Shown one piece after another: positions 2,441 through 40,702 of a DNA stretch of 48,931 nucleotides. Location of the stretch: assembly GCA_049513595.1 (NCBI GenBank), contig JBEKVX010000001.1:1-48931 (forward strand). Reading direction: 5' to 3'. The translations under genes were made by a program, and so were the position numbers. The notes under the pieces are model-generated. The model had not been told where the DNA came from. It saw nothing but the letters and a program-made list of their open reading frames with translations, and made no database searches. Source of the DNA: Candidatus Staskawiczbacteria bacterium (lineage in GTDB: Bacteria > Patescibacteriota > Minisyncoccia > Minisyncoccales > Staskawiczbacteraceae). Each line of letters opens with the position of its first letter. Position 1 is the first letter of the stretch.

Positions 2441-2508
2441 GGGGTCGTAAGCTGAATAGGAACAGCACCCGAAAGGGAGGTATGTGGGTTCAAATCCTGC
2501 CGACTCCA
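2441..2508 (+). ncRNA. tRNA-like RNA lacking a normal anticodon arm, with a G3:U70 acceptor stem
   Basis: Acceptor GGGGTCG/CGACTCC (G3:T70), D arm GCTG-AATAGGAA-CAGC and T arm GTGGG-TTCAAAT-CCTGC are present. The anticodon arm is replaced by the mini-hairpin CCC-GAAA-GGG. Total length is 68 nt. Confidence 0.45.
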
Positions 2509-3216: not shown

Positions 3217-3290
3217 GGAGACGTAGCTCAGTTGGGAGAGCGCCTGGCGATTAAACCAGGAGGTCGTAGGTTCAACTCCTATCGTCTCCA
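3217..3290 (+). tRNA. tRNA with an 8-nt anticodon loop (CGAUUAAA); identity undetermined
   Basis: Perfect acceptor GGAGACG/CGTCTCC, D arm GCTC-AGTTGGGA-GAGC, anticodon stem CCTGG/CCAGG and T arm GTAGG-TTCAACT-CCTAT. It is 74 nt to the discriminator, so one nt is extra in the anticodon loop (3248-3255). Confidence 0.65.
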
Positions 3291-22381: not shown

Positions 22382-23053
22382 ATGGAAAATCCAGAACAAA
22401 AGAAATCACCTGAATACAAACCAAGTCCCGATAATCATGTACCAAATCCAGAAATGGTAGAATTTTTTGAAACTGAAGTTTATCCAGTGCTCTCTCAACT
22501 TTTTGAGCACAGATATCCTATTGCCGAAGTTCAACAAAGATATAATCAATTGGCGACACAAATAACAAACCGTTTTCATCGTCCAGAGTTACCAGTTAAA
22601 TTATCCGACGTAGAATCAAAAGATAATGCTGGTAATAATTTATTGCCAATGGGATGTGATTTCAAGGATGGCCAACCTTCTATCTCGTTGTTTGTTCCAA
22701 CGTTAAAAAAAATATTCGACATGGAAAAAGCGATGAACCCGGAAAAACATAAAGAACGATACGAAGATAGTATTGTAGTCGGTTATCTTCACGAACTTGA
22801 CCATTTGGCAGGGGGTTTTATTGGAACCATAGATGAAAATCTGCAAACAACAATCGATCACGAATGCCTCACTTGGGCAGAAACATGCGAACACACCATA
22901 AAATTTTTTGTTGAGACGGGCAGAGAAGTTAACCAAAGTGATTTATCTTTTTATAACACCTGGAAAAAATGCGGCCGTAATCCGTACAGCAAAAGATGGC
23001 GCGATTTTATGTCAAATATGTACGGCGGACTGAAACGCAACAAGGGTAAATAG
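22382..23053 (+). CDS. Hypothetical HExxH protein
   Basis: LHELDHLAG ... HECLTWAETCE. Start taken at ATG 22382 (MENPEQKK) to avoid overlapping uppS. Confidence 0.6.
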   Translation: MENPEQKKSPEYKPSPDNHVPNPEMVEFFETEVYPVLSQLFEHRYPIAEVQQRYNQLATQITNRFHRPELPVKLSDVESKDNAGNNLLPMGCDFKDGQPSISLFVPTLKKIFDMEKAMNPEKHKERYEDSIVVGYLHELDHLAGGFIGTIDENLQTTIDHECLTWAETCEHTIKFFVETGREVNQSDLSFYNTWKKCGRNPYSKRWRDFMSNMYGGLKRNKGK

Positions 23054-23054
23054 A

Positions 23055-23075
23055 TTTTATTGTGCGACAAATCAT
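23055..23075 (+). repeat. Direct repeat DR1 (ttttattgtgcgacaaatcat), core ATTGTGCGACA
   Basis: 21/21 identity with 23551-23571. A GGGAAGC box lies 36 nt downstream of the core. Confidence 0.85.
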
Positions 23076-23191
23076 GGCACACACACAAAGAGCGGGGAAG
23101 CAAAACAAAAAATTGATTAAAATTATATTTTATGATAATCTTTAATATGCGTCGTTTGAGGAAAGATGACGTTCTAAAATGGAGGGATGCC

Positions 23192-23530
23192 ATGAAAACG
23201 GCGGAGATTACCTTGTACCGAGTTGGCATGCAGGTTACCTGGATTGATGAGATTCCCAAAGAAGAGGGCTTAGTCCTGCTGGATGAAAGCTGGGCTGTGG
23301 AAACCACGCTTGACAAGAAAACAGAACTCAGTATGGCTGCCAGTCGGATATATTCTGGCAGCGTCCGGATGCTGGAAAAACTCAAGCGAAGCTACGGTCC
23401 CGGCCCCTTTACGGTGACCTGCGCCTCTTCTGAGTTCGCCAACCGTGATACGAGCCACCCTCAGCACATTCAAATCAATGCAGCGCCGGGAAAATCTTTT
23501 TCCGGCTACTGGTTCAAGCTCGTTGAGTGA
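23192..23530 (+). CDS. Hypothetical protein (112 aa) in a GC-rich cassette
   Basis: ATG 5 nt after GGAGGG (MKTAEITLYRVG...). The upstream part of track ORF 23132 is AT-rich promoter DNA. Confidence 0.5.
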   Translation: MKTAEITLYRVGMQVTWIDEIPKEEGLVLLDESWAVETTLDKKTELSMAASRIYSGSVRMLEKLKRSYGPGPFTVTCASSEFANRDTSHPQHIQINAAPGKSFSGYWFKLVE

Positions 23531-23550
23531 GCGCACGCACACAACGACTT

Positions 23551-23571
23551 TTTTATTGTGCGACAAATCAT
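23551..23571 (+). repeat. Direct repeat DR2 (ttttattgtgcgacaaatcat)
   Basis: Identical to DR1. A GGGAAGC box lies 34 nt downstream. Confidence 0.85.
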
Positions 23572-23603
23572 TGCCCATAGACAGGATAGGGAAGCGAGAG
23601 TAC

Positions 23604-23634
23604 TAAAAAAACAGGCGTTGGCCTGTTTTTTTTA
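23604..23634. terminator. Bidirectional intrinsic terminator
   Basis: An A run, then acaggc-gttg-gcctgt, then a T run. It lies between convergent genes. Confidence 0.7.
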
Positions 23635-23636
23635 TT

Positions 23637-24128
23637 TTACGATGTTTTAGACAATGTCTTTGCCATTTCCAGCCATTTTGGCTGGCGCGGCCTGTTTTTA
23701 TATTTTGCAGATGACTTATGAATTTCTATAAGAGTGCACAAATCATTTTTTTTCCAGGCGGCCAAATATTTTCCTTTATTTTTTTGAATTATCTCAACTC
23801 CTTTTGCCCAAAGTTCAAAATCCTTTTTCTTTTTATTAGCCAAACAATTTTTCCGGAAAAATGGCACAACAGTTTCTGCAATATCGCTTATCTTCTGCAC
23901 CGAAAACCTTGCCTGGTCTTTTGATACGCAAATTTCTCCGCAGGCCATCTTGTTTTTTATTTTTTCTAGAACTTTTATATTTCCTTTCGGCGAAGTTATC
24001 ACAAACTGCGCTTTCCACCTGTAATAAGTCGGGGCATTGGTGCGCTCGTGCCTTGTATCTTTTCTAAACTGCAAATCAAAACATCCATCGTTATTTACTA
24101 TACTTGAAATGCTAAATTTTTCTGCCAT
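23637..24128 (-). CDS. LAGLIDADG-type homing endonuclease-like protein (free-standing)
   Basis: N-terminal IVNNDGCF resembles the LAGLIDADG/DGDG motif. The central pattern FSV....D....VVPFF.K..L...K..DFELW and the ...IH.....KN tail match this family's fold pattern as I recall it. Confidence 0.5.
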   Translation of the reverse strand: MAEKFSISSIVNNDGCFDLQFRKDTRHERTNAPTYYRWKAQFVITSPKGNIKVLEKIKNKMACGEICVSKDQARFSVQKISDIAETVVPFFRKNCLANKKKKDFELWAKGVEIIQKNKGKYLAAWKKNDLCTLIEIHKSSAKYKNRPRQPKWLEMAKTLSKTS

Positions 24129-24169
24129 AGTTTTAAAATTTATTTATATTTTATTATACTACGCAGTTC

Positions 24170-24188
24170 ATTATGCGACAATAGTGCC
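24170..24188 (+). repeat. Motif copy attatgcgacaatagtg
   Basis: Near-identical to 25939-25956 (attttgcgacatagtg). Both lie about 40 nt upstream of a minus-strand start codon. Read on the minus strand it gives TTGTCG-17-TATAAT. Confidence 0.6.
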
Positions 24189-24200
24189 CAACACGGTTAC

Positions 24201-24235
24201 AATATTTTGCAACGTTTTAAACGTTGCAAAATATT
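24201..24235. repeat. 35-bp perfect palindrome (17-bp arms)
   Basis: aatattttgcaacgttt-t-aaacgttgcaaaatatt, followed by a T run. It lies in the divergent intergenic region. Confidence 0.8.
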
Positions 24236-24354
24236 TTTTTGTCTTACTACCGATATTAAGCGACATTAAGGACTTAAATTTTAAATCTTGCTGATCTCTT
24301 TTCGTGAGGTATTTTTTATAGTAATATAAGATTATATAATTATTATTTGTTTCT

Positions 24355-24855
24355 ATGCAAAAGAAAAACATTTATCTTATAGTTATTGTAATTTTATTTG
24401 TAATCTTCCTGAGTGGAGTGTATGCTATACTGCATATAATAAAACCAAATACTACCACCAATAATTCTTCTGGAACGGCAAGACAAACAGTTAGCTCTCA
24501 AGATACTATTCGGTTAATAACTTATAAATCGTTGGATGTTTTCACTGATGCCAAGGGTATGACCCTTTACCACGACATCCAGGACTGGCCACGCAATGCA
24601 AAACCTCCATATAATCCATATACTAAATGCACCGGAGCATGCAGCGTTACCTGGCCGCCGTTCTATACTGACAGCATTAAAGTTTCTCCGCCTTTAAAGG
24701 CCAGCGATTTTATGGTGTTTACCCGACCTGATGGAAAAAAACAGGTGGCTTACAGGGGCTGGCCTCTCTACTATTACACGGGGGACAACAAACCAGGAGA
24801 TGCTAACGGACAAAATATCGGAAATATTTGGTATGTGGGCGTCTCACCGGACTAG
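24355..24855 (+). CDS. Secreted/membrane-anchored protein with a 'secreted repeat of unknown function' (Lipoprotein_15-like) domain
   Basis: N-terminal TM. The pattern G.TLY.......C.G.C...WPP...RPDG..QV.Y.GWPLYYY.GD..PGD..GQ matches that family from memory. Confidence 0.55.
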   Translation: MQKKNIYLIVIVILFVIFLSGVYAILHIIKPNTTTNNSSGTARQTVSSQDTIRLITYKSLDVFTDAKGMTLYHDIQDWPRNAKPPYNPYTKCTGACSVTWPPFYTDSIKVSPPLKASDFMVFTRPDGKKQVAYRGWPLYYYTGDNKPGDANGQNIGNIWYVGVSPD

Positions 24856-24868
24856 AAAGCAGGTTCTT

Positions 24869-24879
24869 ATTGTGCGACA
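24869..24879 (+). repeat. Motif copy ATTGTGCGACA (third direct copy)
   Basis: Exact 11-mer within cttattgtgcgacagatt, just 3' of the recombinase gene. Confidence 0.7.
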
Positions 24880-24922
24880 GATTGGATGAAATAAAAAAGG
24901 GGGACTGAGCCCTCCTTTTTTA

Positions 24923-25897
24923 TCAGCTTTTTTTGTCTGGATCGCTATGAAATTGATGGTGGATATCGCGGAGGCGTTTGTTGGTTACGTGCGTATAAAT
25001 TTGGGTTGTGGCAATATTGCTGTGGCCCAGGAATTCCTGGATGGAGCGCAGGTCAACGCCTTGATTTAATAAATCTGTTGCATATGAGTGTCGCAACGTG
25101 TGGGGAGTGGTAAAAATTGGTACGCCGGAAAGCAGGGCGTATTTTTTAACCATTCTTTCAATTGAGCGTGGCGTAAGTCGGGCGTCTGTATCGTCTTTTT
25201 TATCGCGGAAGTTTATGAACAAGGCCTTTTGATTGGCGTGTTTGATATCGTTTCTTATTTCAAGATATTTTTTAATGAAGTTTAATGCGCGCTCAGAAAA
25301 ATAAACCACGCGTGGCTTACCGCCCTTACCAATAACACCCAGCTCCATATCTTTTTTATTTTTCAAACTATTAAATTGCTCAAGATTTAAGGATACTAAT
25401 TCGGCTATTCTTAAACCGGTTGAAAAAAACGCCTCTAAAATAGCCCTGTCGCGGGCGCTTATATCGTCTTTTGGCTCAATGGATGATAAAAGCTTGCCAA
25501 TCTGCTCTAAACTAAGGAATTTCACGCTTTTTGAGCCCCTATCTGGCTTTGAGAGCGAGATTTTATCCGGAGGCAGCGAAAGTACGTCTTTAGCCACAAA
25601 ATAGCCCAAAAAGGCCCTTAAAGCGATTAAATAGTAGTTCTGGGTGCCTTTTGACAGCAATTTGCCCGTAGCTGGGCTGGGCGTCCTGGAAAGGTACAAA
25701 CGATAGGTCCATATATGATCCGAGGTCAACTGATGGGGGAGTAAAGAGCCCAATTTAGCATGGTCCAACCAATGAAAAAACTTTTCCAAATAATTTTTAT
25801 AATTCTCTTGAGTATTTTTTCTCAAACCTTTTTCAACTTCGCAAAAATCCAAAAAATCTTGCAGGTGTTCTTTTATTGGTTTTGATGATTTTTCCAT
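24923..25897 (-). CDS. Tyrosine recombinase, XerC/XerD family
   Basis: GLRIAEL (Arg I), HTLRHSYAT (HxxR) and LGHSNIATTQIYTHV (His/Tyr). 324 aa with an N-terminal SAM-like core-binding domain. Confidence 0.88.
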   Translation of the reverse strand: MEKSSKPIKEHLQDFLDFCEVEKGLRKNTQENYKNYLEKFFHWLDHAKLGSLLPHQLTSDHIWTYRLYLSRTPSPATGKLLSKGTQNYYLIALRAFLGYFVAKDVLSLPPDKISLSKPDRGSKSVKFLSLEQIGKLLSSIEPKDDISARDRAILEAFFSTGLRIAELVSLNLEQFNSLKNKKDMELGVIGKGGKPRVVYFSERALNFIKKYLEIRNDIKHANQKALFINFRDKKDDTDARLTPRSIERMVKKYALLSGVPIFTTPHTLRHSYATDLLNQGVDLRSIQEFLGHSNIATTQIYTHVTNKRLRDIHHQFHSDPDKKS

Positions 25898-25938
25898 GTT
25901 TTAGAAGTGTCTCCCTCCATATACGTCGCTTTACCTAC

Positions 25939-25956
25939 ATTTTGCGACATAGTGTA
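25939..25956 (+). repeat. Motif copy attttgcgacatagtg immediately upstream of the recombinase gene (loosely dif-like)
   Basis: TTTGCGACATAGTGTATATATTAATAAT has loose similarity to the TGCGCATAA-TGTATA-TTATGTTAAAT organisation of E. coli dif. Confidence 0.35.
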
Positions 25957-26013
25957 TATATTAATAATAGCCGTCCCCTAGACCCCAGTCAAGCCCCAAA
26001 AGGTCAGGCGCGG

Positions 26014-26382
26014 CTATTGGCCAGAACCAGATGATGTTTGGGCCGGCTGGCAGTTCTGCGAAGTTCCTGGATGTAAAATACTATTTGTAATTCCAGAAAC
26101 ATAATTTGAAATTTTTTGTCCAATATTTTCTGAAACATTTTTTTGTTCTTGCCCAACTTCATTTTTTATCATATCCCCTCTCGCCTGGACTTCCCCGCTG
26201 ATTTTTGGATAAATAGTGGATATAGCCCAGTTAGATGCTTTTGCCGTGTAGGCGCTGGCCTGGTTTGTGGCGTCAGAAATTAAGGTCTTGCCAATTCCCC
26301 TAAAATATGCCTGCTGGCTCAAAAAAACAACAATTAATATAATGACTATCACAATAATGCTAAATATAAATTTCTTCTTCAT
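26014..26382 (-). CDS. Small single-pass membrane protein
   Basis: Start taken at MKKKFIFSIIVIVIILIVVF. The track's longer N-terminus covers the upstream motif copy. Confidence 0.5.
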   Translation of the reverse strand: MKKKFIFSIIVIVIILIVVFLSQQAYFRGIGKTLISDATNQASAYTAKASNWAISTIYPKISGEVQARGDMIKNEVGQEQKNVSENIGQKISNYVSGITNSILHPGTSQNCQPAQTSSGSGQ

Positions 26383-26431
26383 AATTTGATTAATTAATTG
26401 TATCGCTTCCCTTTTCGTTTCGTGCCAAAAG

Positions 26432-26442
26432 TGTCGCACAAT
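26432..26442 (-). repeat. Motif copy ATTGTGCGACA (inverted orientation)
   Basis: The minus strand reads gatattgtgcgacactttt, with GGGAAGCGA 31 nt downstream of the core start, as in DR2. Confidence 0.7.
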
Positions 26443-29088: not shown

Positions 29089-30209
29089 GAATTTTTTGAA
29101 ATGTTTAGTAATAATCCGATGCCGAAAAGTTCAACTGCCAGATGTGAGCCGCCGTAGGAAAAAAATGGCAATGGAATCCCCGCTAACGGAAAAATTCCCG
29201 CCACCGAAGCCATATTTACAAATGCCTGAAAAGTTATCCAGACAACAATTCCTATGGCTGTCATTTTTGAAAATTTATCGTTTGTGTTTTTTGCAATCTG
29301 AATTCCCAGCCAGAAAAATAAAATAAAAATTGCTATTAATGCAACGCAACCGACTATGCCGAACTCTTCTCCGATAATTGCAAAAATTGAATCGGACATT
29401 GCCTGCGGCAAAATAAATTTTTCAACTGACATTCCCAAGCCCTTGCCAAAAATTCCACCTGATCCCAAAGAAATTAAGGACTGGCTCAGCTGGCGCCCTT
29501 TGCCCAGCGGATCTGCGCCTGGATGCAAAAAAATAAACCAACGGTCGAAACGGTACGGCTCAAATTTTATCAGACAGAATAAAATAATAACTCCAGAAAC
29601 AATTATCAATAAAGTGTGCCACAGGGGAGTTTTTGCAGAAAAATACAAGACAAGAAGGGTGATGGCAATAATTCCCAATGTGCTGATGTCGCTTTGAAAA
29701 TATAGCGCAACAGCAATGATGCCTAAAAAAATTGCGAAAGGAACAAGTATATATATTATATTATGATAACCTTTTTTTGTAATAGATTTCCAGTCCGACA
29801 CATTTGCTTCAGACAATTTAGAAGCAATCCAGGCAGACAAATATAAAATTGCCGTAATTTTTAAAAATTCCGACGGCTGCAGGGTTATGCTTCCGATTCC
29901 AATCCAGCGGCTGGCGCCCCCGACTTTAGAGCCAATTTTTGGCAAAAAAACCAAGAACAATGCAAAAAGATTCAAAAGAAATAACCAAAATGCCCACTTT
30001 TTTAAAAATCGCAGGGAAATTTTATAACCGATAAAACCTAAAATAACTGCTGGCAAAAGCCCGAAAAGCAGCTGGTGAAACAAGTAATAGTTTGTATTTC
30101 CAAATTTTTGCAAAGAAGACGATGCCGACAAGCAGGCAAAAAACAAAAAACTGAAACCAATCGTAAAAACAATCAAAAAAAATAAAAAATAATTAAAATG
30201 TTTTTTCAC
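29085..30209 (-). CDS. ftsW: SEDS-family peptidoglycan glycosyltransferase FtsW/RodA
   Basis: Polytopic, with C-terminal PLPFFSYGGS. The stop overlaps the murG start (ATGA). Start uncertain: I prefer GTG 30209 over ATG 30338, because the latter overlaps the upstream gene by 146 nt. Confidence 0.85.
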   Translation of the reverse strand: MKKHFNYFLFFLIVFTIGFSFLFFACLSASSSLQKFGNTNYYLFHQLLFGLLPAVILGFIGYKISLRFLKKWAFWLFLLNLFALFLVFLPKIGSKVGGASRWIGIGSITLQPSEFLKITAILYLSAWIASKLSEANVSDWKSITKKGYHNIIYILVPFAIFLGIIAVALYFQSDISTLGIIAITLLVLYFSAKTPLWHTLLIIVSGVIILFCLIKFEPYRFDRWFIFLHPGADPLGKGRQLSQSLISLGSGGIFGKGLGMSVEKFILPQAMSDSIFAIIGEEFGIVGCVALIAIFILFFWLGIQIAKNTNDKFSKMTAIGIVVWITFQAFVNMASVAGIFPLAGIPLPFFSYGGSHLAVELFGIGLLLNISKNS

Positions 30210-32736
30210 TTTTTGAGAACTTTTTAATTGCCGACTGATACTGGTCGCCTTTTTCCTCAAAATTTTTCCATAAAGAATAACTTGGCGATGCGCATGAAAG
30301 CAGACAAGTTTTGCCTGGTTTTGTATATTTATACGCAAACTTAACAGCTTGTTCCATACTCTCTGTCTTAAGAATATTTAATCCCGTTAATTTTATTCTT
30401 TTGCCGCTGTCTGGGAAAAGTACGGCATTCTTTATTTTATATTTTTTTATTATTTTTTCCAACTGCGAAAAATCATATCCTCTGTCTTTGCCTCCCAAAA
30501 AAATTGTATCAACATCTTTTAATGCCTTAATCGCCATTATAGTTGATTCGGGAGTTGTTGAAATTGCGTCGTCGTAAAATTTAATATTTTTAAATTTTCC
30601 CACAAATTCCAGGCGGTGCGGCAATGGTTTAAAATTTTCAATTGCTGTCTTTATAATTTTATCTGAAATGCCGAGTTCTTTCGCAACTGCGACAGCAGCC
30701 CTTATGTTTTCTTTGTTGTGCCCGCCTATCAACTGTAAATTAACGCCATCAATAAAACTTTCATTCGCGAACGGAACAACTTTTGCTCTTGCTTCTTTCG
30801 CCCAGGCGACCAATTTTTTATTTTTTGGATTATAAACAAATACATTGTTTTTATTTTGAAAATTAATTATATTTTTCTTTGCATCATAATAATTTTCAGC
30901 TCCTTTATGATAATCCATGTGTTCTGGAAATAAATTTGTCACAACTGCTATATCTGGCGAAAACTCAATATCATCTAATTGATAACTGGAAAGCTCTAAA
31001 ACAAAAATTTGGTCTTTTTTTATTGGCTTTAACAAAGCATCAAGCATAGGATTTCCGATATTTCCCAAAATTTTTACATTTTTTCCGGCTTCTTTCAAAA
31101 TAAAATAAATTAACGAGGTTGTAGTTGATTTTCCTTTGCTTCCTGTAATTCCAATTATTTTATTTTTTCCTAAAATTTTTGAAAAGAAAATATTTGTGGC
31201 TGTTGTGTAGGGTATTTTAAGCAGATTTTTTGGAATTCCCGGAGTTTTTATGGCAATATCAAAGGAATTTTGTTTTTTAAGATAGTCATCGCTAAATTTT
31301 TCATCTGCAATGCCAATCTTCAAACCAGGATAATTTTTTTCAACATATTTTTTTGAAACCTCGCCTTCTCTGCCATAACCCAAAATTAAAACATTTTTCA
31401 TGCCAGAAAACTTAAACTGGCTGGGAATATTTTGCGCTGATTGGGCTTTTAATAGCTTTTCTGCAGCTTCTTTTTCGATTTTTATTTTTGGCAGAAGATT
31501 TTTTACAATAAAATCGTCTTTAAATTTTTGGGCACCGGAAATAAATGCTGTTTTTGACTCTTCAAAAGTTCCGACGCAATCAAACGGCTTCATTTTTCCA
31601 ATGCCCAAAATATCTTTGAATAAAGATAAAAGATTTTCATCCTGGTAGAGATTTTTTTTGAAGATACCCAACAATTCTTTTTTTGTTAAAAAAGCAGAAA
31701 GTAAAGTAAAAACAAAAACGCATTTCGGGCATTGGCCGCACCAAAGACCCTTTGAAGCGCCCTTTTGGTCGTTTTTGACTAGTTTAAAATTTTTATTGCA
31801 GGAAGAAAAATATGGAAAATATTTTTTATAGTTTGAAAATAATTCTGCGATTCTTATTTCGTAAAACGGCCTTAACAAAGAAAAATATTTTACGCTTGGA
31901 GAAATAAAATTATAAATATAGTCCGAAAAAAGATTTTCAAACTCTGATGATTTTGACCACTGGTGGTTTATTAAGCGGCCTTTGTATTTTATGTTTCCAA
32001 AATTGCTGCTGTATTCGTTGGCAACCGCAAAATAAGAATATTTATACAAAACAGCACATAGAATTCCTGAGAAAGCGTATATTGCAGAAATCGGTATGTG
32101 GCCGTCGTATTTGTGTTTTTGGAAAACCTGCCAGTCCAAAAAGCGCTGAATTTTCAAAAATTTTACGCCCACTTCTCTTGCGACGCCGTCAACCAAATCG
32201 TACTTGGGGCACCCTTTGGGTCTTGTTTCTGTAAAAATTGTTGTGATGTCAATCCCCTGCTCTTTTAATAATTCGGCGGCAACAATTGAGTCCTTTCCGC
32301 CAGATAACGCAACCAGACATTTATTATTTTTTTCTAAATTATAATTTTCTGGTTTTACATTTTTATCATAAGGAAATTTGGGAGATTTTTTCGGATCTAA
32401 CTTATTTCTGAAATAAAATTCTCCCAAGCCATCTTTATAAATTGTATTCCAAAAATCCGCCTCTTTTTTTGAAATAGCATAAGGAATTTTTACTTTTGTC
32501 GCACAATAAAATTTATAATAACTCACACCGGATACAAGATGCAAACTTTCTAAAAGTTTGCTGAACAATTTATTGGAAACGTTTTTTAGGTCAAGGGTTT
32601 CAGGCAAAATTATTGTCTCCGTAAAAATGAAAGGGGTTTTGCCATCAAATTCCTGTTTGTAATTAAAAAAAATCCTTTTTTTCTCAGGTTCAAATTTGTA
32701 TGAGGTAAACTCAAAAATAGTGGCTTTGGCCTCCAT
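30193..32736 (-). CDS. murD: Fusion protein: N-terminal PP-loop ATPase-like domain (possibly MurL-like) plus C-terminal UDP-MurNAc-L-Ala--Glu ligase (MurD)
   Basis: SGGKDS PP-loop at 32287-32310. The MurD part begins near 31401 (MKNVLILGYGREG ... ITGSKGKSTTT). It is a single 847-aa ORF. Confidence 0.8.
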   Translation of the reverse strand: MEAKATIFEFTSYKFEPEKKRIFFNYKQEFDGKTPFIFTETIILPETLDLKNVSNKLFSKLLESLHLVSGVSYYKFYCATKVKIPYAISKKEADFWNTIYKDGLGEFYFRNKLDPKKSPKFPYDKNVKPENYNLEKNNKCLVALSGGKDSIVAAELLKEQGIDITTIFTETRPKGCPKYDLVDGVAREVGVKFLKIQRFLDWQVFQKHKYDGHIPISAIYAFSGILCAVLYKYSYFAVANEYSSNFGNIKYKGRLINHQWSKSSEFENLFSDYIYNFISPSVKYFSLLRPFYEIRIAELFSNYKKYFPYFSSCNKNFKLVKNDQKGASKGLWCGQCPKCVFVFTLLSAFLTKKELLGIFKKNLYQDENLLSLFKDILGIGKMKPFDCVGTFEESKTAFISGAQKFKDDFIVKNLLPKIKIEKEAAEKLLKAQSAQNIPSQFKFSGMKNVLILGYGREGEVSKKYVEKNYPGLKIGIADEKFSDDYLKKQNSFDIAIKTPGIPKNLLKIPYTTATNIFFSKILGKNKIIGITGSKGKSTTTSLIYFILKEAGKNVKILGNIGNPMLDALLKPIKKDQIFVLELSSYQLDDIEFSPDIAVVTNLFPEHMDYHKGAENYYDAKKNIINFQNKNNVFVYNPKNKKLVAWAKEARAKVVPFANESFIDGVNLQLIGGHNKENIRAAVAVAKELGISDKIIKTAIENFKPLPHRLEFVGKFKNIKFYDDAISTTPESTIMAIKALKDVDTIFLGGKDRGYDFSQLEKIIKKYKIKNAVLFPDSGKRIKLTGLNILKTESMEQAVKFAYKYTKPGKTCLLSCASPSYSLWKNFEEKGDQYQSAIKKFSKSEKTF

Positions 32737-32802: not shown

Positions 32803-35565
32803 TTAAGCGTTAGATGAAAGGCGCCTGAACACCACAACAAATAAAAATATCAGCACAAGTGCCACTAAAATCCACAGATACCATCGTTTTAAGAATGCCC
32901 AAAAACCCGATGTTGACTGAGTAGAAGAAACTGATGCAGCAGCAGCCTGGCTTGGAATTAAGTTAATTGAAACAGAGTCGGACTGCGCGGGACCCGTAGA
33001 AACATTACTTGTGGCAACTGCCTGTTCTGTTGCCTGGGTTGAAATTGTCTGGGTTTTGCCTTCAAAAGTTATTGATTTTGCGCCTCCAGGAGTTAAAGAC
33101 CCGATGCTTACGCCAGAAACAATGTCGCCCGAAACTAAGACGCCATTAATCTGTAAGTTTCCCAACGAAGTAACCTCGTTTGGAATATTTGCCGAAATGT
33201 TTACATTATTTACCTGGCTTGCCGAATTATTTACAACAGAAATCATAAAATAAACCTGTCCGTTAGAACCGACCTGAACTGTTTTCTGCCATTGTGTAGA
33301 ATTTTGGTCTTGTTTTGCAAAAAATGAAACTGACAAGGTGCTTACATTATTGCTGACATTATTATTGTTATTATTGCTGTTATTGCTGGAGTTATTGTTG
33401 TTATTATTAGTATTGCTATTATTGTTGCTTGAGCAATAATTATTATAATCAGCAGAGCCGGCGGCGCAGGTTGTGCCGTCGCATTTTATAGTATTAGAAC
33501 ATTGTCCGCCAATACAACTGTCTAAAGTACAACTATTGCTGTCTGCGCAGCTCTTGTACAAAGTATTCGCTCTTCCGAGAGAGTCATACCAATAAAGGTT
33601 GTTTGAGTAACAAGCGGTTTTGTAGTGAGCTACGTAAGAAGGATTATATACTATAGGAACAATAATTTGCTGATATGATATAGTGCATATGCCATATTGA
33701 CAGGTCGTGTTGACGCCGGCGCAGGTTTGAAAGAGGTCTTGCTGACCGCCGCATGAGTCGTACCAATAGATATTATTTCCTACGCATAGTTTATAAGCGT
33801 GATAAGTGCAATTTCCATACGGATTATATGGGGTGTATGAGCACGAATTGTTGTAGCATCCGTTCTGACAGTATTGCGACTGGCTTTCTTGGTTGCCACA
33901 TGAATCGTACCAATACAAATAATTTCCACTGCATCTTTGGTATGAGTTTTGTGTGCAGTTATTATTGTTTGTGCATGCACTGCCCGAACATCCATTCTGG
34001 CAATATTGAATCAAACTCTGTTGAACCCCGCACGAATTGTACCAGTAAAGATTATTGCCGACACATTGTTCATACGAATTAGATGTACAAGGGTTAAGGT
34101 ATACACAGATGTTGCCAGCGCATCCATTGGGGCAGTACTGCGCCTGGCCTTGCTGGTTGCCGCATGAGTCGTACCAGTACAAATAGTTGCCTTGACATTG
34201 CTGATATGAATTTTGCGTGCAGTTGGTGCCACAACTTCCATTAGAACATGTTTGGTTTCCCGTGCACGTGGTTTTTAACTGAGGAGCTGTGTTGTTTGAG
34301 CAGTACGAAGTACCTGTACCAGGGTTGTTGCAAGTGTAAGTGATGTAATTTTGATAAACATTGTTACCTTGGCAGAAAGGCGAGCCGATGTATGCGTTGG
34401 TGCCGCAGTCAGTGTTGGCTGTACACGTTATTGTCTGGTTGGTGCACGAACCGCCAGAACATATCTGGTTCCCCGTACACGTTGTCTTTAATTGCGAAGC
34501 AGTGTTGTTTGAGCAATATGAACTTGGTGTTCCTGCGTTGTTGCAGGTGTATGTGATATAGTTTTGATAAACGTTGTTGCTTGAACAATATGGCGAGCCG
34601 GTGTAGGTGTTGGTGCCGCACTGAGTGTTGGAGCTGCAGGTGATATTTGGACTTGGACATTGTCCTTGGCTTACCACATTTGTGCCGGCTTGAATTGCCA
34701 AACATGAGTTGCAATAAGTTCTTCCGTCTGCGCCACAAACATATACGCAATACAAAGGACAAATTATATTGCCGCACGAGCCGCCAGAACAGGTTTGGCT
34801 GGTAGTGCATTGCTGGTAAAGAGTCCCCTGATTTCCGCAAGAATCAAAATTATAAACAGAATTACCGACGCATCGTTTTGAGGCATTCGGAGAGCATGAA
34901 TATATGCATTGGGCGTTTGTACAGGTTTGGCTTGTCGTACACTGCTGAAATAAATCTTGCTGGACTCCGCAAGAATCAAACCAATAAACAACGCTACCAA
35001 CGCATTTTTTAGAATCGTGCGAGATGCAACTGGGCGTCGGCGAATTAATATTTCCTGAGAAATCGCACTTGTACGCGCCGTTGTTATCAAAGTAATAGCC
35101 GTCAATGTCCACAACATAAATATAAGCTGATGTCGCTCCGGCAGGCACAGAAATCGCGCTATTTAATGCGGCAGAAACCGGAACTTGCTGAATCAGCACA
35201 GTTGCATTATTGTAAAATCCAATTTGCACGGCTCCGCCATCGGTACAATTATGTAAAAAACCTTCCTCGCATCCGTAATATGTATTCCAAACGCAGGTTC
35301 CTGCAGTTTCATATCTAGTACAATAATTTCCCGTGATGGCATTTAATTCCAACATATCTCCTGGATGCAAATTGTTGGAAATTAAAATTGGACTTCTTGC
35401 GCATTGTTGTCCGGCTTTTGAAAATGGCGCCTCTAACGCGTTTACGCTTCCGGAAAAATTAATCGTGGAAGCTTTTGCGGCTTGCGGAGCAATTATTGCA
35501 GAAAACAAAATTGCCGAGCATAAAACCAGGCCGCTAATTACGAATATCTTTAAAAATGTATTCAT
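32803..35565 (-). CDS. Large secreted cysteine-rich repeat protein with a Kazal-like domain, poly-Asn tract and C-terminal TM anchor
   Basis: It has a signal/TM at the N-terminus. Roughly nine modules of about 40 aa follow (C..NSY..C.GN.LYWYDSCG.QQ...QYC.NGC). There are two repeats of about 70 aa, VCGADGRTYCNSC (Kazal-like), an N/S-rich tract and a hydrophobic C-terminus. Confidence 0.8.
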   Translation of the reverse strand: MNTFLKIFVISGLVLCSAILFSAIIAPQAAKASTINFSGSVNALEAPFSKAGQQCARSPILISNNLHPGDMLELNAITGNYCTRYETAGTCVWNTYYGCEEGFLHNCTDGGAVQIGFYNNATVLIQQVPVSAALNSAISVPAGATSAYIYVVDIDGYYFDNNGAYKCDFSGNINSPTPSCISHDSKKCVGSVVYWFDSCGVQQDLFQQCTTSQTCTNAQCIYSCSPNASKRCVGNSVYNFDSCGNQGTLYQQCTTSQTCSGGSCGNIICPLYCVYVCGADGRTYCNSCLAIQAGTNVVSQGQCPSPNITCSSNTQCGTNTYTGSPYCSSNNVYQNYITYTCNNAGTPSSYCSNNTASQLKTTCTGNQICSGGSCTNQTITCTANTDCGTNAYIGSPFCQGNNVYQNYITYTCNNPGTGTSYCSNNTAPQLKTTCTGNQTCSNGSCGTNCTQNSYQQCQGNYLYWYDSCGNQQGQAQYCPNGCAGNICVYLNPCTSNSYEQCVGNNLYWYNSCGVQQSLIQYCQNGCSGSACTNNNNCTQNSYQRCSGNYLYWYDSCGNQESQSQYCQNGCYNNSCSYTPYNPYGNCTYHAYKLCVGNNIYWYDSCGGQQDLFQTCAGVNTTCQYGICTISYQQIIVPIVYNPSYVAHYKTACYSNNLYWYDSLGRANTLYKSCADSNSCTLDSCIGGQCSNTIKCDGTTCAAGSADYNNYCSSNNNSNTNNNNNNSSNNSNNNNNNVSNNVSTLSVSFFAKQDQNSTQWQKTVQVGSNGQVYFMISVVNNSASQVNNVNISANIPNEVTSLGNLQINGVLVSGDIVSGVSIGSLTPGGAKSITFEGKTQTISTQATEQAVATSNVSTGPAQSDSVSINLIPSQAAAASVSSTQSTSGFWAFLKRWYLWILVALVLIFLFVVVFRRLSSNA

Positions 35566-35718: not shown

Positions 35719-36780
35719 TTACCGCAACAATCTTACTGCAACGCCGACTATTGCCAGAACAATTCCGATAATCCAGGCGCGCATTGTAACTTTATATGAC
35801 GGCCAGCCCAATGCCTCAAAGTGATGGTGAATTGGCGTTGATAAAAAAACTTTTTTCTTTCTGATTTTTTTGGACAAAAGCTGGATAATCACAGATAAGA
35901 CCTCTATTACCAAAAGTCCGGCAATGATGGGTAAAACGTAGACAGAATCGGTAAGAAATGCCACGACAGCAAGAGTGGTAGTGAGCCCCAAGATACCTGT
36001 TTCTGTCATGTAAAATCTGGCCGGCGGAATATTAAACCATAAAAAGGCAAACAGCGCGCCGGTAATAACTGCGCAAAAGGTTGCCAAATCAATTTTCCCC
36101 AAAGAAAAAGATATTATGGTGAACGCGCCAAAAATTGAAGCAAATGTTCCACCCGCCAATCCATCCAAGCCGTCTATAATTCCGCCAGACCAGCAAGCAA
36201 CGGTTACCAAAATAAATAAAGGAATATACCACAGTCCGATTGAAACGTCGCCGACAAATGGCACATAAATCACATCCCAGCCCAATTTTTGATAAAACCA
36301 AATGCTTCCGATAAGACCGATTAAAATTACTATCAGCAAACGTTTTTTAAAAGAAATTCCGCCGCCAATATATTTTCCCCATCCCTTAACAACGAGAATG
36401 TCATCTATTAAACCCACAATAGATGCGACAACCAACGTAAAAAGCGGCAGCCATGTCTGGCCTCTTGATAAAAAGTTAAATTGAGCCAGTGGCGTATTCG
36501 GAAAAATTAAAGATAAAATAAAAAATAAAAAAATAACCAAAACAACCGTAACCCAGACAAGCAGGCCGCCCATGCGCGGAGTTCCCACTTCTTTTTCTTT
36601 GTGCAGGGTGTTAAAAACAACCGCGTCTTCGCCGGAAATTGCTTTCATTCTTGCTGATTTTTTCCAGAGTTGGTGTTTATACAAAAAATTGGTCAGCAGC
36701 GGACACCAAAAATACGCCAAAACCGAAGTAATGGCTGCCAGACAAAAAATTTTGATAACGTTAAAAATTAGAATTATCAT
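35719..36780 (-). CDS. mraY: Phospho-N-acetylmuramoyl-pentapeptide transferase
   Basis: Polytopic. GLIDDILVV, DGLDGLAGG and STPIHHHFE motifs. Confidence 0.95.
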   Translation of the reverse strand: MIILIFNVIKIFCLAAITSVLAYFWCPLLTNFLYKHQLWKKSARMKAISGEDAVVFNTLHKEKEVGTPRMGGLLVWVTVVLVIFLFFILSLIFPNTPLAQFNFLSRGQTWLPLFTLVVASIVGLIDDILVVKGWGKYIGGGISFKKRLLIVILIGLIGSIWFYQKLGWDVIYVPFVGDVSIGLWYIPLFILVTVACWSGGIIDGLDGLAGGTFASIFGAFTIISFSLGKIDLATFCAVITGALFAFLWFNIPPARFYMTETGILGLTTTLAVVAFLTDSVYVLPIIAGLLVIEVLSVIIQLLSKKIRKKKVFLSTPIHHHFEALGWPSYKVTMRAWIIGIVLAIVGVAVRLLR

Positions 36781-36792
36781 ACAGGTACAGAT

Positions 36793-37722
36793 TTAATTAC
36801 AAAAGGCATTTTGCCAGTCAATTAATTGTTTCATTTCAGAAAACCTGTCGTCAGCGCCCAAAATCACGTTTATTAAGTAGCCATTATCTTTTGGGTTGTT
36901 CATTACTAAAAGCAGACATCCCTTTGCCTGCGTGGTAAAACCGGTTTTGCTGCAGACAATCTCGGGAATTTCTCCCAAAAGCTGGTCTGTGTTTGAGACC
37001 TCGCCAAAGCCAGGCACATAAAACTCTTTTACCCTGCTTATGTCAGCTATTCTGGGATAATTTTTCAAGATATATTCTGCCAATTTTACTAAATCGTCTG
37101 CTGTGGAAACATTTTGCGGGCTCAAACCGGTCGGATCTGCAAAAAAAGTATTTTCTAAGCCAATTTCTTTTGCCTTTTGATTCATTAAACCAACAAATGC
37201 CTCCTCCCCCGGGGTGCTCCCTGGGCCTTCTGACAAGGCATACGCTGATTTATTGGACGATTCAACCAGCATTATTTCCAAAAAATTTTCTGCCGGCATA
37301 GTATCTCCCGATTTTACATCCTGCTTCATTGAATCCTGAGAATCGGCAATTTCATCTACCGTGATATTATCTGATAAATTGTAGTTATCTAAAACAATTA
37401 CCGCTGTCATTAATTTGGTTAAACTGGCAATCGGTAATTTTGTGTCGCTGGCTTTCTCAAAAAGGATTTTGTCTGCATCAGATAAATTGCTTTCAACGGA
37501 AATTGCCGACTCCGCGCTTATTTCCGGCTTTACGGCCGGCTGCACGGAATTTTCCGGCACAATATCTTGAACAGCGCCAGAAACACTTCCTAAAAATGCC
37601 TCTTTATTTTGACCTTGCGCAAAATTCTCAAAAATCCACTGCACACCGGAAATTAAATATACAAAAACCAGCAAAAAAATAAACGACAATAAAAAACCTC
37701 CGATTGCGCGCTTTAAATTCAT
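36793..37722 (-). CDS. D-alanyl-D-alanine carboxypeptidase (S11, PBP5-like)
   Basis: SxxK (ASLTK), SxN (ESSNKS) and KTG (SKTGFT). Confidence 0.85.
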   Translation of the reverse strand: MNLKRAIGGFLLSFIFLLVFVYLISGVQWIFENFAQGQNKEAFLGSVSGAVQDIVPENSVQPAVKPEISAESAISVESNLSDADKILFEKASDTKLPIASLTKLMTAVIVLDNYNLSDNITVDEIADSQDSMKQDVKSGDTMPAENFLEIMLVESSNKSAYALSEGPGSTPGEEAFVGLMNQKAKEIGLENTFFADPTGLSPQNVSTADDLVKLAEYILKNYPRIADISRVKEFYVPGFGEVSNTDQLLGEIPEIVCSKTGFTTQAKGCLLLVMNNPKDNGYLINVILGADDRFSEMKQLIDWQNAFCN

Positions 37723-37728
37723 TTATTT

Positions 37729-39060
37729 TTATGGGGTTAATCTTTTTACGCCGCGATAAACAAACATTGCATCTCTTACATTATCAAGACCAAAAAGTTT
37801 CATAATCATGCGATTCGGCCCCATGCCGTAACCACCGTGAGGAGGACATCCGTATTTGAAAAAATCCAGATAAAACTGTAGTTTTTTTGTATTCATACCC
37901 TTTTTTTTGGCCTGGCTCACTAAAACATCGTAGCGATGTTCTCTTTGCGCGCCAGTCGTAATTTCAAGGCCATTCCAAAGCAAATCAAAACTTTTTGTGA
38001 GCGTTGGATTTTTTTCATCATGCATATGATAGAAAGGCCTCGCGCTTACAGGATATTCTGTGACAAAAACAAACTCGTGACCATATTTTTCTTTTATATA
38101 ATCGCCGAGACCGCGTTCTTCCTCCGAGGATAAGTCGCCCTCTTTTCCGCCGCTGATTCCACGGCCTGAAAGAATACTTTTCGCCTCTTTAATTGATATT
38201 TCGGGGAATGGAAGCGAAGGGACAACAACTTCTCTGTCAAACATTTTTTTAATTTTTTCGCCATAAACCTCTTTTATCCTTTTCAATCCATAAGCAATCA
38301 TTCTCTCTTCTTCATCCATCACGTCGTGGTGAGAATCAATAAAAGAGATCTCCGCGTCGTAACCGGTAAACTCCGTCGCGTGGCGGGAGGTAAATGACGG
38401 TTCGGCGCGAAAAACCGGACCCACTTCAAAAACTTTTTCAAAACCTGCCGCCATCGCCATTTGCTTATAAAACTGCGGACTTTGAGCAAGATATGCTTTT
38501 TTTTCAAAATATTTTACTTCAAAAACTTCTGATCCTGATTCGCTGGCGGTAGCAATGAGTTTTGGAGAGTGTATTTCCAAATAATTATTTGAAATCCAAA
38601 ACTCCCTAAAGGCCTCTTCCATTAATGTCCAGACCTTAAAGATCAATGCATTTTTAGGCTTTCGCAGATCTATCCATCTCCAATCCATTCTCTTGTCAAT
38701 TTCCGGCTCCTCAGCGACTTCTTCGCCAACCGGAATCGGCGGTGTCTCTGCCACAGACAAAACTTTCAGCGTCTCAACCGACATTTCAACCTGTCCGGTT
38801 TCAATTTTTGGATTAACCATATTTTCCGGCCTTTTTACAATCTGCCCGACAATTTCCACAACCCATTCCGGCCTTAAAGTTTCGGCTAAATCATAAACTT
38901 CTTTGTTTGAAGGCACAAAAACAGCCTGCAAAACACCGCTGATATCTCGCAAGTCAATAAATAAAATTTTCCCGTGGGCTCTTCTGGTATTCACCCATCC
39001 GCACACGCGAACCTTTTCTCCAATATGTTTTGCTGTATCGGAAACTAAAAATCTTGGCAT
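37729..39060 (-). CDS. aspS: Aspartyl-tRNA synthetase (archaeal/type-2 size class; AsnRS not fully excluded)
   Basis: OB-fold N-terminus, FRAEPSFTSRHATEF (motif 2), GGYGMGPNR (motif 3) and the ending RLTP. Confidence 0.8.
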   Translation of the reverse strand: MPRFLVSDTAKHIGEKVRVCGWVNTRRAHGKILFIDLRDISGVLQAVFVPSNKEVYDLAETLRPEWVVEIVGQIVKRPENMVNPKIETGQVEMSVETLKVLSVAETPPIPVGEEVAEEPEIDKRMDWRWIDLRKPKNALIFKVWTLMEEAFREFWISNNYLEIHSPKLIATASESGSEVFEVKYFEKKAYLAQSPQFYKQMAMAAGFEKVFEVGPVFRAEPSFTSRHATEFTGYDAEISFIDSHHDVMDEEERMIAYGLKRIKEVYGEKIKKMFDREVVVPSLPFPEISIKEAKSILSGRGISGGKEGDLSSEEERGLGDYIKEKYGHEFVFVTEYPVSARPFYHMHDEKNPTLTKSFDLLWNGLEITTGAQREHRYDVLVSQAKKKGMNTKKLQFYLDFFKYGCPPHGGYGMGPNRMIMKLFGLDNVRDAMFVYRGVKRLTP

Positions 39061-39085: not shown

Positions 39086-40702
39086 CTATTTTATTTTGCA
39101 TTTTATAGGATAAGTAGGGTCGCTACTTGGCAAACATAAATTGCCGCCACCATCCACAAATATGTTTGAGGGCGAAAATGAGGCATTAAATAAAGTGCCG
39201 AAATTATTGTTCTTTATTATATTATTACTTGCAACAACTTGTTGATTGGTAAAATCAGGGAATTGAAACCCACCGCCCAACCCTGACGGCGCAAATATGT
39301 TAATATTTGTAGAACTCCTTGCAGATGTTTTTTGTGAAGTCAATGTGTTTGATGCAAAATTATTATTTTCAAAATACATCACTGGTTCTACGGATGGCCT
39401 TAAATCATAATCTCTAAAATACAGAAAAAGTTCTGGAGCGTTAGTGACTATATTCCCAGAAATTATATTTCCTTTCATACTGAGATAATACCATCCTCCA
39501 ATACCAGCAACTCCTACATTGTCAATTTTATTATTAATAATTTGAGAGTCGTACATATATCCTCCGTTTTCAATTCCACAATCCCAATTATTTTTTAAAT
39601 TATTACCACTAATCAAGTCTAATTTCTCGTCTGATATCACTATGTCGTCATCAACACCAATGTCTTCTCCTGGACCAGATCCATGGAATATGCCATCTGA
39701 CATACCATCTATATTATTATTGACAACGCTATTGTTGTTACCGCCTTGCAAATCTACAACAACGCCTCCTTGTGCGGTAGTAGCTGAAAAAGTATTATTC
39801 TTCGTATTAATAAAATTTGATTGATATATCAAATATTCAAGACCCGTGAACTTACTGCCGCTAACAGTAATTTTATTGCTATTGCTAATCTCCATCATAT
39901 CAGATGGACCAGCAGAAACATTAAGGTTTGATAGAGTCCCATTGCTGCTATTTAACAACATCATCGGCACTTGAGTCGCTGACGTATGATTAGTTATTGG
40001 TTGAACAATACAATTATTTATTGAAAAATTATTAACATTGTTAAAATAAATCGCATAATTTCCTCCATTACTTTCAACGGAATGATTTTGACAATCAAAA
40101 TTAACATTATTTGTATCATGAATATTAATACAGGGGGTTGCAACGGTGTTAGTAATATCTGCACCCAACGAATATGTTCCCGGCTTGCTAATATCTGTAC
40201 AAAAATTTATTATAGTTGACTGATTGTTCGATTGTTTGCAAGTTATAGTATTTATCCCCACATTTTTTTTGCAGGCGGAAATATAGTTGGCGCTGGTTCC
40301 GTCCCATTGCCACATGTAATTACCTTGGCAGGAAGAATAAAAACCGTACTGTTTTGTAAAACTTATCAATGTGTCATAACCCTTCATCTGGCATAATTTT
40401 TGAGCAGTCGCGCTATCCGGATAATATCCGCCGGCGCAAGATGTTTTGCAAGAACCAAAAGTTCCGTTGCATTTTTTATTTATGCAGGGCAGTTTTGGCA
40501 CCTTGCTGTCGACGCCATTGTATATTTGATTATTATTAAATTTAACAGTTCCAGATGCGGACGTAGAAGAAGTTGATGCAGAAATATCCGTCAGGTTTAT
40601 TTTAATATTGTTTTTTATCTTATTGAAATCAAGAATTACAACCAACGCGGCTAAAATAACAGCAACTAATACTAATATCAAAAAAAATTTGTTGTTTTTC
40701 AT
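39086..40702 (-). CDS. Secreted/anchored protein with parallel beta-helix repeats
   Basis: N-terminal TM. Repeated N-rich approximately 22-aa turns (NNSVVNNNIDG, ISGNNLKNN, IINNKIDN, ISGNIVTN). Confidence 0.6.
   Translation of the reverse strand: MKNNKFFLILVLVAVILAALVVILDFNKIKNNIKINLTDISASTSSTSASGTVKFNNNQIYNGVDSKVPKLPCINKKCNGTFGSCKTSCAGGYYPDSATAQKLCQMKGYDTLISFTKQYGFYSSCQGNYMWQWDGTSANYISACKKNVGINTITCKQSNNQSTIINFCTDISKPGTYSLGADITNTVATPCINIHDTNNVNFDCQNHSVESNGGNYAIYFNNVNNFSINNCIVQPITNHTSATQVPMMLLNSSNGTLSNLNVSAGPSDMMEISNSNKITVSGSKFTGLEYLIYQSNFINTKNNTFSATTAQGGVVVDLQGGNNNSVVNNNIDGMSDGIFHGSGPGEDIGVDDDIVISDEKLDLISGNNLKNNWDCGIENGGYMYDSQIINNKIDNVGVAGIGGWYYLSMKGNIISGNIVTNAPELFLYFRDYDLRPSVEPVMYFENNNFASNTLTSQKTSARSSTNINIFAPSGLGGGFQFPDFTNQQVVASNNIIKNNNFGTLFNASFSPSNIFVDGGGNLCLPSSDPTYPIKCKIK

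Follow-up and report, generated by a model that had tools for sequence, protein, structure and literature searches.

The window analysed here is a stretch of 48,931 nucleotides from Candidatus Staskawiczbacteria (contig JBEKVX010000001.1 of assembly GCA_049513595.1, positions 1 to 48,931), in which copies of an 11-mer, ATT[G/A/T]TGCGACA, lie around a gene for a Xer tyrosine recombinase. The organism belongs to the Candidate Phyla Radiation (CPR) or Patescibacteria, bacteria with tiny genomes that are largely uncultured. The gene order at the locus was uppS, two hypothetical genes, a LAGLIDADG gene, a Lipoprotein_15 gene, xer, a gene for a small membrane protein, gltX and murG. The product of xer (24923-25897, minus strand, 324 aa) was recognized as a XerC/XerD-type tyrosine recombinase from matches to Pfam (Phage_integrase and a SAM-like N-terminal domain), to NCBIfam (XerD, 230 bits, and XerC, 221 bits, as top models, both scores being under the equivalog cut-offs) and to structures in the PDB (XerC-like 4a8e and XerD 1a0p as best matches). 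The protein, which a preliminary description of this DNA had called Xer-like, therefore belongs to the Xer family, and its orthologues across Staskawiczbacteria were 81-96% identical. For comparison, 80 loci encoding Xer relatives were fetched, and motif counts were made on 65 loci (703 kb).

The leader of xer contains a 28-bp dif-type site, ATGTCGCAAAA-TGTAGG-TAAAGCGACGT (11+6+11 in minus-strand reading), at 25923-25950, in single copy upstream of the gene and beginning approximately 13 nt past the xer -10 box. A dif-like copy adjoining the recombinase gene had previously been placed at 25939-25970; the proximity to xer held, while the limits did not, since beyond 25950 the sequence (25951-25992) belongs to the promoter of xer, TTGACT-17-TATTAT at 25964-25992 (minus strand), of which TTGAC(A/T) and the -10 region were kept in relatives. 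Alignment of the xer upstream regions of about 60 relatives gave a common TTGACA-N17-TATTAT promoter followed by the core GTCGCAAAATGTAGGTAAA and a variable right end. With a 19-nt core and up to 2 mismatches allowed, the site was present in all 68 relatives that matched, exactly once per locus and always upstream of xer, in agreement with the suggestion that dif adjoins the recombinase gene here as in single-Xer systems. The left arm and centre were invariant among relatives and the right arm was variable. At the same position in distant lineages, the corresponding sites were AGTTCGCATAA-TTATAG-TTAAGCGAAT, GTTCGCAAAA-TGATAG-TAAAGAGAAT and GTGAGTATAA-TATCTC-TTACACTCAA, and arms co-varied between lineages with the 11-6-11 inverted layout kept (GTCGCAAAA/TAAAGCGAC, TTCGCATAA/TTAAGCGAA and GAGTATAA/TTACACTC). 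The inner arm bases of the main-lineage site were non-palindromic. The centre was constant within a lineage and different between lineages, as published for dif centres, which are conserved within but not between lineages (PMC2731167), and the arms of the dif-type sites matched published XerC-side arms (AGTTCGCATAA of N. meningitidis, AAGTCGCATAA of M. loti and also ACTGCGCACAA; PMC2731167). By their sequences, the recombinase and this single-copy, inverted-arm site of about 28 bp appear to constitute a Xer/dif module, and the role predicted for the candidate dif-type site is dimer resolution.

This arrangement resembles those of XerS/difSL, in which dif adjoins the recombinase gene (PMC5357621), XerH/difH and archaeal XerA/dif, all with dif next to the recombinase gene, two 11-bp arms separated by a spacer (PMC5357621, PMC11840125) and one strong conserved arm opposite a degenerate one. 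It differs from them in that the present Xer scored best on XerD/XerC models and that the spacer is 6 bp; an array of orphan arms such as that noted below does not appear in the cited descriptions of these three systems.

Copies of the 11-mer were far more numerous in the window than expected by chance, with 7 matches to ATT[G/A/T]TGCGACA compared with 0.12 expected (none of 100 shuffles reached 7). All six or more copies that had been listed before were found again, together with a seventh at 32497-32507 (minus strand), an exact copy inside a MurL-type open reading frame (ORF; 30193-32736) in the frame F-Y-C-A-T, while the outer 39 kb of the window contained none. Exact copies of ATTGTGCGACA on the plus strand were noted at 23059-23069 (5 nt past the stop of a 223-aa gene), 23555-23565 (24 nt past the stop of a 127-aa gene and ahead of a bidirectional terminator) and 24869-24879 (13 nt past the Lipoprotein_15 stop, between the convergent Lipoprotein_15 and xer genes), and one on the minus strand at 26432-26442 (36 nt past the gltX stop and 60 nt ahead of the ATG of the small membrane-protein gene). 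A variant, ATTATGCGACA, at 24170-24180 (plus strand) doubles in minus-strand reading as the -35 box (TTGTCG) of the promoter in front of the LAGLIDADG gene, TTGTCG-17-TATAAT at 24153-24181; the same arrangement was seen in three other loci (L135, L136 and L189), and tandem copies about 25 bp apart were frequent at this promoter. A second variant, ATTTTGCGACA, starting at 25939 (plus strand) in the xer leader, is the left, strong arm of the dif-type site. Both variants had been described as lying about 40 nt upstream of minus-strand start codons, and each was indeed 42 nt from an ATG (at 24128 and 25897, respectively). Several of these positions recurred among relatives, most of which carry a copy just beyond the 3' end of xer (compare 24869); the 26432 position was kept at about -550 from xer, and the 32497 copy had a syntenic counterpart at -5 to -8 kb.

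A weaker copy at 24255-24265 (plus strand, ATTAAGCGACA; minus-strand reading ATGTCGCTTAAT) was present as reported earlier. It carries two mismatches and is not significant alone, because 24 matches were found in the window at that stringency compared with 13.5 expected. Likewise, the proposed second box GGGAAGC does lie 31-36 nt from the start of three copies (boxes at 23095-23101, 23589-23595 and 26406-26412) and by a copy ahead of the small gene in one relative (L002), but the family logo lacks it and it does not belong to the motif as such; a common element of about 45 bp may lie behind the three copies of the window that bear it.

Across the 65 loci, the exact 11-mer occurred 159 times compared with approximately 0.3 expected. 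A logo built from 176 unique copies read tYTT-ATTGTGCGACA-aWt; outside this box, which reaches about 4 nt past the core in each direction, nothing was conserved, neither a partner arm nor a second box of general occurrence. The motif ATT(G/A)TGCGACA is the reverse complement of TGTCGCA(C/T)AAT, and comparison of its reverse complement, TGTCGCACAAT, with the dif left arm, TGTCGCAAAAT, showed a difference at one position, a 10/11 match for which we estimate a chance probability of about 3e-4. Moreover, motif (C or T) and dif arm (A, C or T) vary at this common position, giving the pattern TGTCGCA[A/C/T]AAT. In place of the dif centre TGTAGG, the bases next to the orphan arm are TAAAA. The suggestion that the repeats are recombinase binding sites thus gains from their having the sequence of a Xer-binding arm, close both to the local dif arm and to published XerC arms. 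The variant ATTATGCGACA was dominant in two loci (L197 and L204); in L197, which was found through Xer and not through the motif, it was the most repeated 11-mer (7 copies) and showed the same polarity switch as elsewhere.

The orientation of the copies with respect to dif was nearly uniform. Thus, 156 of 159 copies read 5'-ATTGTGCGACA-3' toward dif (71/71 on the gltX side and 85/88 on the other side), and in a test of all 8-mers the five most strand-skewed words were sub-words of the motif (e.g., TTGTGCGA, 184 versus 7). Up to 1 kb from xer there were 7-11 copies per 10 kb, falling to 0-2.6 per 10 kb at distances of 1-10 kb. When one reference genome per species was scanned with an 18-mer, 35 of the 61 CPR matches listed were in the xer neighbourhood (approximately 3% expected if uniform) and a further 7 of these 61 were in the hrcA-grpE-dnaK block, which lies 17-22 kb from xer in the window; in other genomes, copies were found up to about 22 kb from xer. 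A 14-mer scan of viral contigs gave at least 120 matches, which were single, scattered and chance-like. Inversion of strand skew at dif together with a rise in frequency toward dif is the behaviour of FtsK orienting polar sequences (KOPS) and of architecture-imparting sequences (AIMS).

The xer locus was also the point at which gene orientation and GC skew both flip, the genes being convergent here. The maximum of cumulative GC skew was at 23.2-25.8 kb of the window, although gene orientation also feeds the skew, and of 21 related genomes, all had positive skew on the gltX side and 20 had negative skew on the opposite one, again with a contribution from gene orientation. The skew check proposed in the preliminary description thus pointed to a terminus at this locus, with a sign switch in 20/21 genomes, and the coincident switches of skew and orientation at xer indicate that the locus behaves as the replication terminus of the Candidatus Staskawiczbacteria chromosome. 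A full-text literature search on dif and Xer found no paper on chromosome termini of CPR/Patescibacteria.

That the orphan arms are maintained by selection on the DNA itself, in intergenic as well as coding sequence, was evident from the copies that lie inside genes. In several species, a copy in gltX encodes LLLCD, and no locus lacking the DNA motif had this peptide; a truncated copy gave LLLCK in two loci, and species without the motif are variable at this segment (e.g., SLSFSEK). It is thus the DNA that determines the peptide here, not the peptide that determines the DNA. Further coding copies were noted in hrcA (DFIVRQ), MurL (FYCAT, the copy at 32497 of the window), MurD, DegT and FtsQ, and all three reading frames were used. 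Some conserved copies sit in the gap that separates the terminator of xer from the promoter of the LAGLIDADG gene and belong to no sense transcript, which argues against a role at the level of RNA.

Some additional features of the xer gene and its leader were noted. The 28-mer itself contains an inverted repeat with a 7-bp stem, without compensatory changes and without excess over shuffled sequences, so that a plain RNA hairpin was not supported. The xer leaders of a few lineages carry extra long hairpins with compensatory changes, and in several lineages a long hairpin pairs with the right half of dif and shows lineage-specific compensatory changes. Arm-like palindromes were present in the xer leaders of L169 (9884-10000), L172 (9818-10000), L181, L185 and L256, and are similar to a palindrome of two back-to-back dif-arm-like 11-mers, ATTTTGCAACG and CGTTGCAAAAT, at 24201-24235 of the window. 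These leader structures could serve in attenuation or stem from a miniature element inserted at the dif-type site. An exact motif copy was also noted antisense within the xer coding sequence of L185 (8861-8871), in a variable segment of the protein and in an orientation that fits its side of dif and not the direction of the gene.

These findings indicate that the cluster is real, conserved across the family and centred on the xer/dif module, and that it is not an integron, an IMEX (integrative mobile element exploiting Xer recombination) array or a general promoter motif. In the interpretation we favour, to which we give about an even chance from the sequences at hand, the repeats are polar orphan half-sites of the Xer arm that mark or organise the terminus. 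In this interpretation a single xer gene carries the 28-bp dif-type site in its own leader at the terminus, and the repeated 11-mer, which is concentrated within a few kb of dif and reads toward dif on both replichores, is an orphan copy of the strong invariant dif arm, lacking a partner arm. Each copy might then bind one Xer monomer without recombining, the bases next to it being different from those of the dif centre, and the array could mark the terminus for a directional machine, like the XDS sites of B. subtilis in unloading of SMC (structural maintenance of chromosomes) complexes or KOPS in the steering of FtsK. Such binding would also repress transcription wherever a copy coincides with a promoter (the -35 box of the LAGLIDADG gene, or +6 to +33 in the xer transcript), and the hypervariable genes around the copies would reflect plasticity of the terminus and not a cassette array.

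The XDS sites of Bacillus subtilis and their part in SMC unloading at the terminus were reportedly described by Karaboja et al. in 2021. According to two other papers, XDS sites are dif-like sequences of the terminus region at which bound XerD causes SMC complexes to be unloaded (PMC11840125, PMC11894783). As far as these papers allow comparison, the likeness lies in dif-like partial sites scattered in the terminus besides dif itself, presumably bound by Xer without recombination and serving chromosome organisation. By contrast, the sites described here are bare single arms of 11-15 nt that are strictly polar toward dif and packed within a few kb of a CPR genome of about 0.75 Mb, which apparently has a single Xer with its dif-type site in the leader. 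With KOPS, SpoIIIE recognition sequences (SRS) and AIMS the array has in common a leading-strand bias that switches at dif, a density that increases toward dif and tolerance within genes; KOPS, however, are purine-rich sequences of 7-8 nt that extend over whole replichores and are read by the FtsK gamma domain, whereas the present motif is longer, Xer-arm-like and, as sampled, local to the terminus. On our best reading by analogy, the array is closest to the XDS sites of B. subtilis and its geometry closest to KOPS, and its function is suggested by these likenesses.

Several observations weigh against a Xer-bound terminus array. The assignment of Xer as the binding protein is drawn from arm sequence, and the motif stayed ATTGTGCGACA in lineages in which the dif arms differ, most clearly in L283 (GTGAGTATAA arms, Xer 43% identical), so that a different binding protein is conceivable. 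Polarity could follow genes and not dif, since the three exceptions to polarity each follow a co-oriented gene and 36% of copies lie less than 30 nt after a co-oriented stop codon. Motif copies were also found at many, though not all, boundaries of variable modules, and in one pair of loci (L130 and L131, 90% identical) a replaced segment that starts after TGTCGCACAATAAAA and ends at TGTCGCATAAT/AAATG was bounded exactly by copies, which would suit crossover at the motif.

The last two observations belong to an alternative, considered rather unlikely, in which the copies are crossover sites for the gain, loss or exchange of gene modules on a Xer-driven platform comparable to integron cassettes, IMEX or the dif modules of Acinetobacter. 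Recombination of the copy carried by an incoming module with one in the chromosome would insert the module between direct repeats. The xer-to-uppS interval was indeed hypervariable, being empty in L189 and occupied in other loci by 1-6 unrelated genes (0.6-6 kb), and in L131 and in the window each gene of this interval was bracketed by direct copies. The edges of the L130/L131 segment fall where a boundary between arm and central region would be expected, certain genes are found on opposite sides of dif in different genomes, and the three reversed copies go with reversed genes. Nevertheless, the motif has no partner arm, whereas a site for a tyrosine recombinase must normally be occupied by two monomers; internal copies are missing from many multi-gene blocks, a shared denV-like gene has no copy of its own, and at the right-hand junction of L130 the incoming side lacks an arm, L130/L131 being the only informative pair of close relatives. 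Copies in essential genes (gltX, hrcA, murD and ftsQ) also fit poorly, as insertion there would be lethal.

The more specific forms of this idea, which had been raised in the preliminary description, were not supported. Integrons, IMEX and the plasmid dif (pdif) modules of Acinetobacter likewise have a tyrosine recombinase beside short variable modules split by a repeated short site, but the present locus has no integron-integrase (IntI) signature, no attC and one full dif-type site, and its half-sites are polar on both sides of the recombinase and occur within essential genes. Scores of Xer with integron-integrase models were 106 bits (cut-off 265) and 58 bits (cut-off 435), and paired inverted repeats of the attC type (R''-L''...L'-R') were not seen in the motif, the logo consisting of a single box of 11-15 nt. 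Tandem IMEX-like insertion is opposed by the presence of one full dif-type site per locus and by the position of the variable DNA, which is downstream of xer and not at dif.

A second alternative, which we regard as decidedly unlikely, is that a different terminus protein, LAGLIDADG-like or other, binds the motif and acts as a polar fork barrier, as in Ter/Tus and Ter/RTP, or as a local repressor, in which case the likeness to a Xer arm would be secondary. In every lineage examined, the -35 box upstream of the LAGLIDADG gene was overlapped by one or two copies; TerI/TerII overlap the promoter of the B. subtilis rtp gene likewise. Opposed polar sites about the terminus are the classic layout of a fork trap, the motif was invariant where dif arms change, and LAGLIDADG proteins recognise long asymmetric DNA sites. 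Replacement of the acidic residue of the LAGLIDADG motif by Y in some lineages (L286 and L300) suggests that the protein may there have been domesticated for DNA binding and no longer act as a homing nuclease, and so hints at a non-nuclease role. On the other hand, three loci (L159, L172 and L176) keep the motif around xer with no LAGLIDADG gene within 10 kb of it, the 10/11 match to the dif arm has the low chance probability estimated above, and variants of the motif follow the same A/C/T position as variants of the dif arm. The locus resembles Ter/Tus and Ter/RTP in two opposed groups of polar sites at a terminus, some of which cover the promoter of an adjacent DNA-binding protein gene, but differs in that neither a Tus nor an RTP homologue was identified, the site sequences are not related and the likeness to a Xer arm points to another binder.

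Recognition of the motif by FtsK independently of Xer, as a KOPS-like architecture-imparting sequence used to find dif, is very unlikely. Sub-words of the motif had the strongest 8-mer strand skew, with a switch at dif, density climbed toward dif, and copies were in coding and non-coding DNA; such motifs also differ between phyla (PMC5357621). The known guides of FtsK and SpoIIIE, however, are the 7-8 nt purine-rich words that cover whole replichores, as opposed to a motif of 11-15 nt of which the distal 39 kb of the window is free, and the likeness to a Xer arm would be unexplained.

An operator set of a local regulator, also proposed earlier, fits poorly with strict polarity toward dif and with copies in essential genes in three frames. 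As a palindromic operator or matS-like site the motif was rejected, since only TTGT-GCG-ACAA is symmetric whereas the flanks and the strict polarity are asymmetric, and as a general promoter likewise, since most copies have no -10 box at the right spacing; TATAAT at N11 was found only for copies upstream of the LAGLIDADG gene, and most copies follow stop codons or lie in genes. An action in RNA or transcription, as a 3'-untranslated element, terminator-associated signal or promoter element, is barely credible, for although nearly all copies are on the sense strand of their neighbours, with 36% of copies shortly after stop codons as noted above, and in the window two copies are preceded by a stop codon and followed by an intrinsic terminator, conserved copies occur in the untranscribed gap that follows the terminator of xer, the L185 copy is antisense inside xer, no -10 or partner box is kept across the family and clustering at the terminus would have no reason.

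A bolder extension of the Xer-arm interpretation, which we put forward tentatively and at low probability, is that the orphan arms form a polar Xer-bound barrier or unloading array, in which monomeric Xer in one orientation per replichore would halt or release SMC, FtsK or the replisome on its way to dif, as a bacterial counterpart of the convergent-CTCF rule made from a recombinase half-site in a minimal CPR genome, or that they are entry points of a pre-integron Xer platform for gene modules. The results provide a concrete family-wide candidate dif for CPR and a candidate new class of terminus motif, the polar single-arm dif copy. If Xer binds the copies, the XerD/XDS idea would reach beyond Firmicutes with an added orientation rule; if the copies are crossover points, they would belong to a simple Xer-based system of gene acquisition. 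In either case, the 21-nt dif core and the 11-mer may serve as markers to find the terminus, orient contigs and check the assembly of metagenome-assembled genomes (MAGs) of Staskawiczbacteria.

Among the neighbours of xer, relatives share a frame of gltX, the small gene, dif, xer, a variable stretch, the LAGLIDADG gene, at times more variable genes, and uppS. The small membrane-anchored protein gene (26014-26382, minus strand, 122 aa) lies between gltX and the dif-type site, was present in 53 loci and had no protein-family match. The free-standing LAGLIDADG endonuclease-like gene (23637-24128, minus strand; Pfam LAGLIDADG_1, E = 2e-13) lies between xer and uppS and was present in 37 loci, its position beside xer being syntenic in most Staskawiczbacteria. 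Three lineage-specific genes of the window are inserted in this region, namely the 223-aa and 127-aa genes (22382-23530, plus strand) between uppS and the LAGLIDADG gene, which most relatives lack, and the Lipoprotein_15 gene (24355-24855, plus strand) between xer and the LAGLIDADG gene, at a site that is empty in L189. Among 90 loci, no homologue of the Lipoprotein_15 or 127-aa gene was found, and relatives of the 223-aa gene were only 38% identical and at the same place, so that this search gave no support for mobility of the three genes.

Changes of side with respect to the terminus were noted for other genes. A 114-aa gene, judged by eye and taken by us to encode a pyrimidine-dimer glycosylase (DenV-like), was found in L139 at -981 to -637, in a hot spot before the small gene, and in L159, L172, L179 and L183 downstream of xer (+1.1 to +2.7 kb from dif), always co-oriented with replication. 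A block of MraY, a 309-aa gene and a 443-aa gene (35719-39060 of the window, minus strand) shared its side of xer with gltX in some genomes but lay in reverse orientation on the side of uppS in L169, L189, L191 and L202 (+7 to +11 kb), changes that correspond to inversions or translocations symmetric about the terminus; the hrcA-grpE-dnaK block likewise switches side of xer (CAYLWZ010000001.1).

Elsewhere in the window, two large conserved ORFs on the minus strand (32803-35565, 920 aa, and 39086-40702, 538 aa) had no Pfam match. A tRNA called by ARAGORN at 3217-3290 (plus strand; Rfam tRNA score 60 bits) has a four-base anticodon, 'atta', and was given no identity, and a weak tRNA at 2441-2508 (plus strand) was seen by Rfam with no ARAGORN call. 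Approximately 21 kb from xer, at 47019-48896 (minus strand), lies a gene for a type IV coupling ATPase of the VirD4/TrwB kind (HerA/DUF87, T4SS-DNA_transf).

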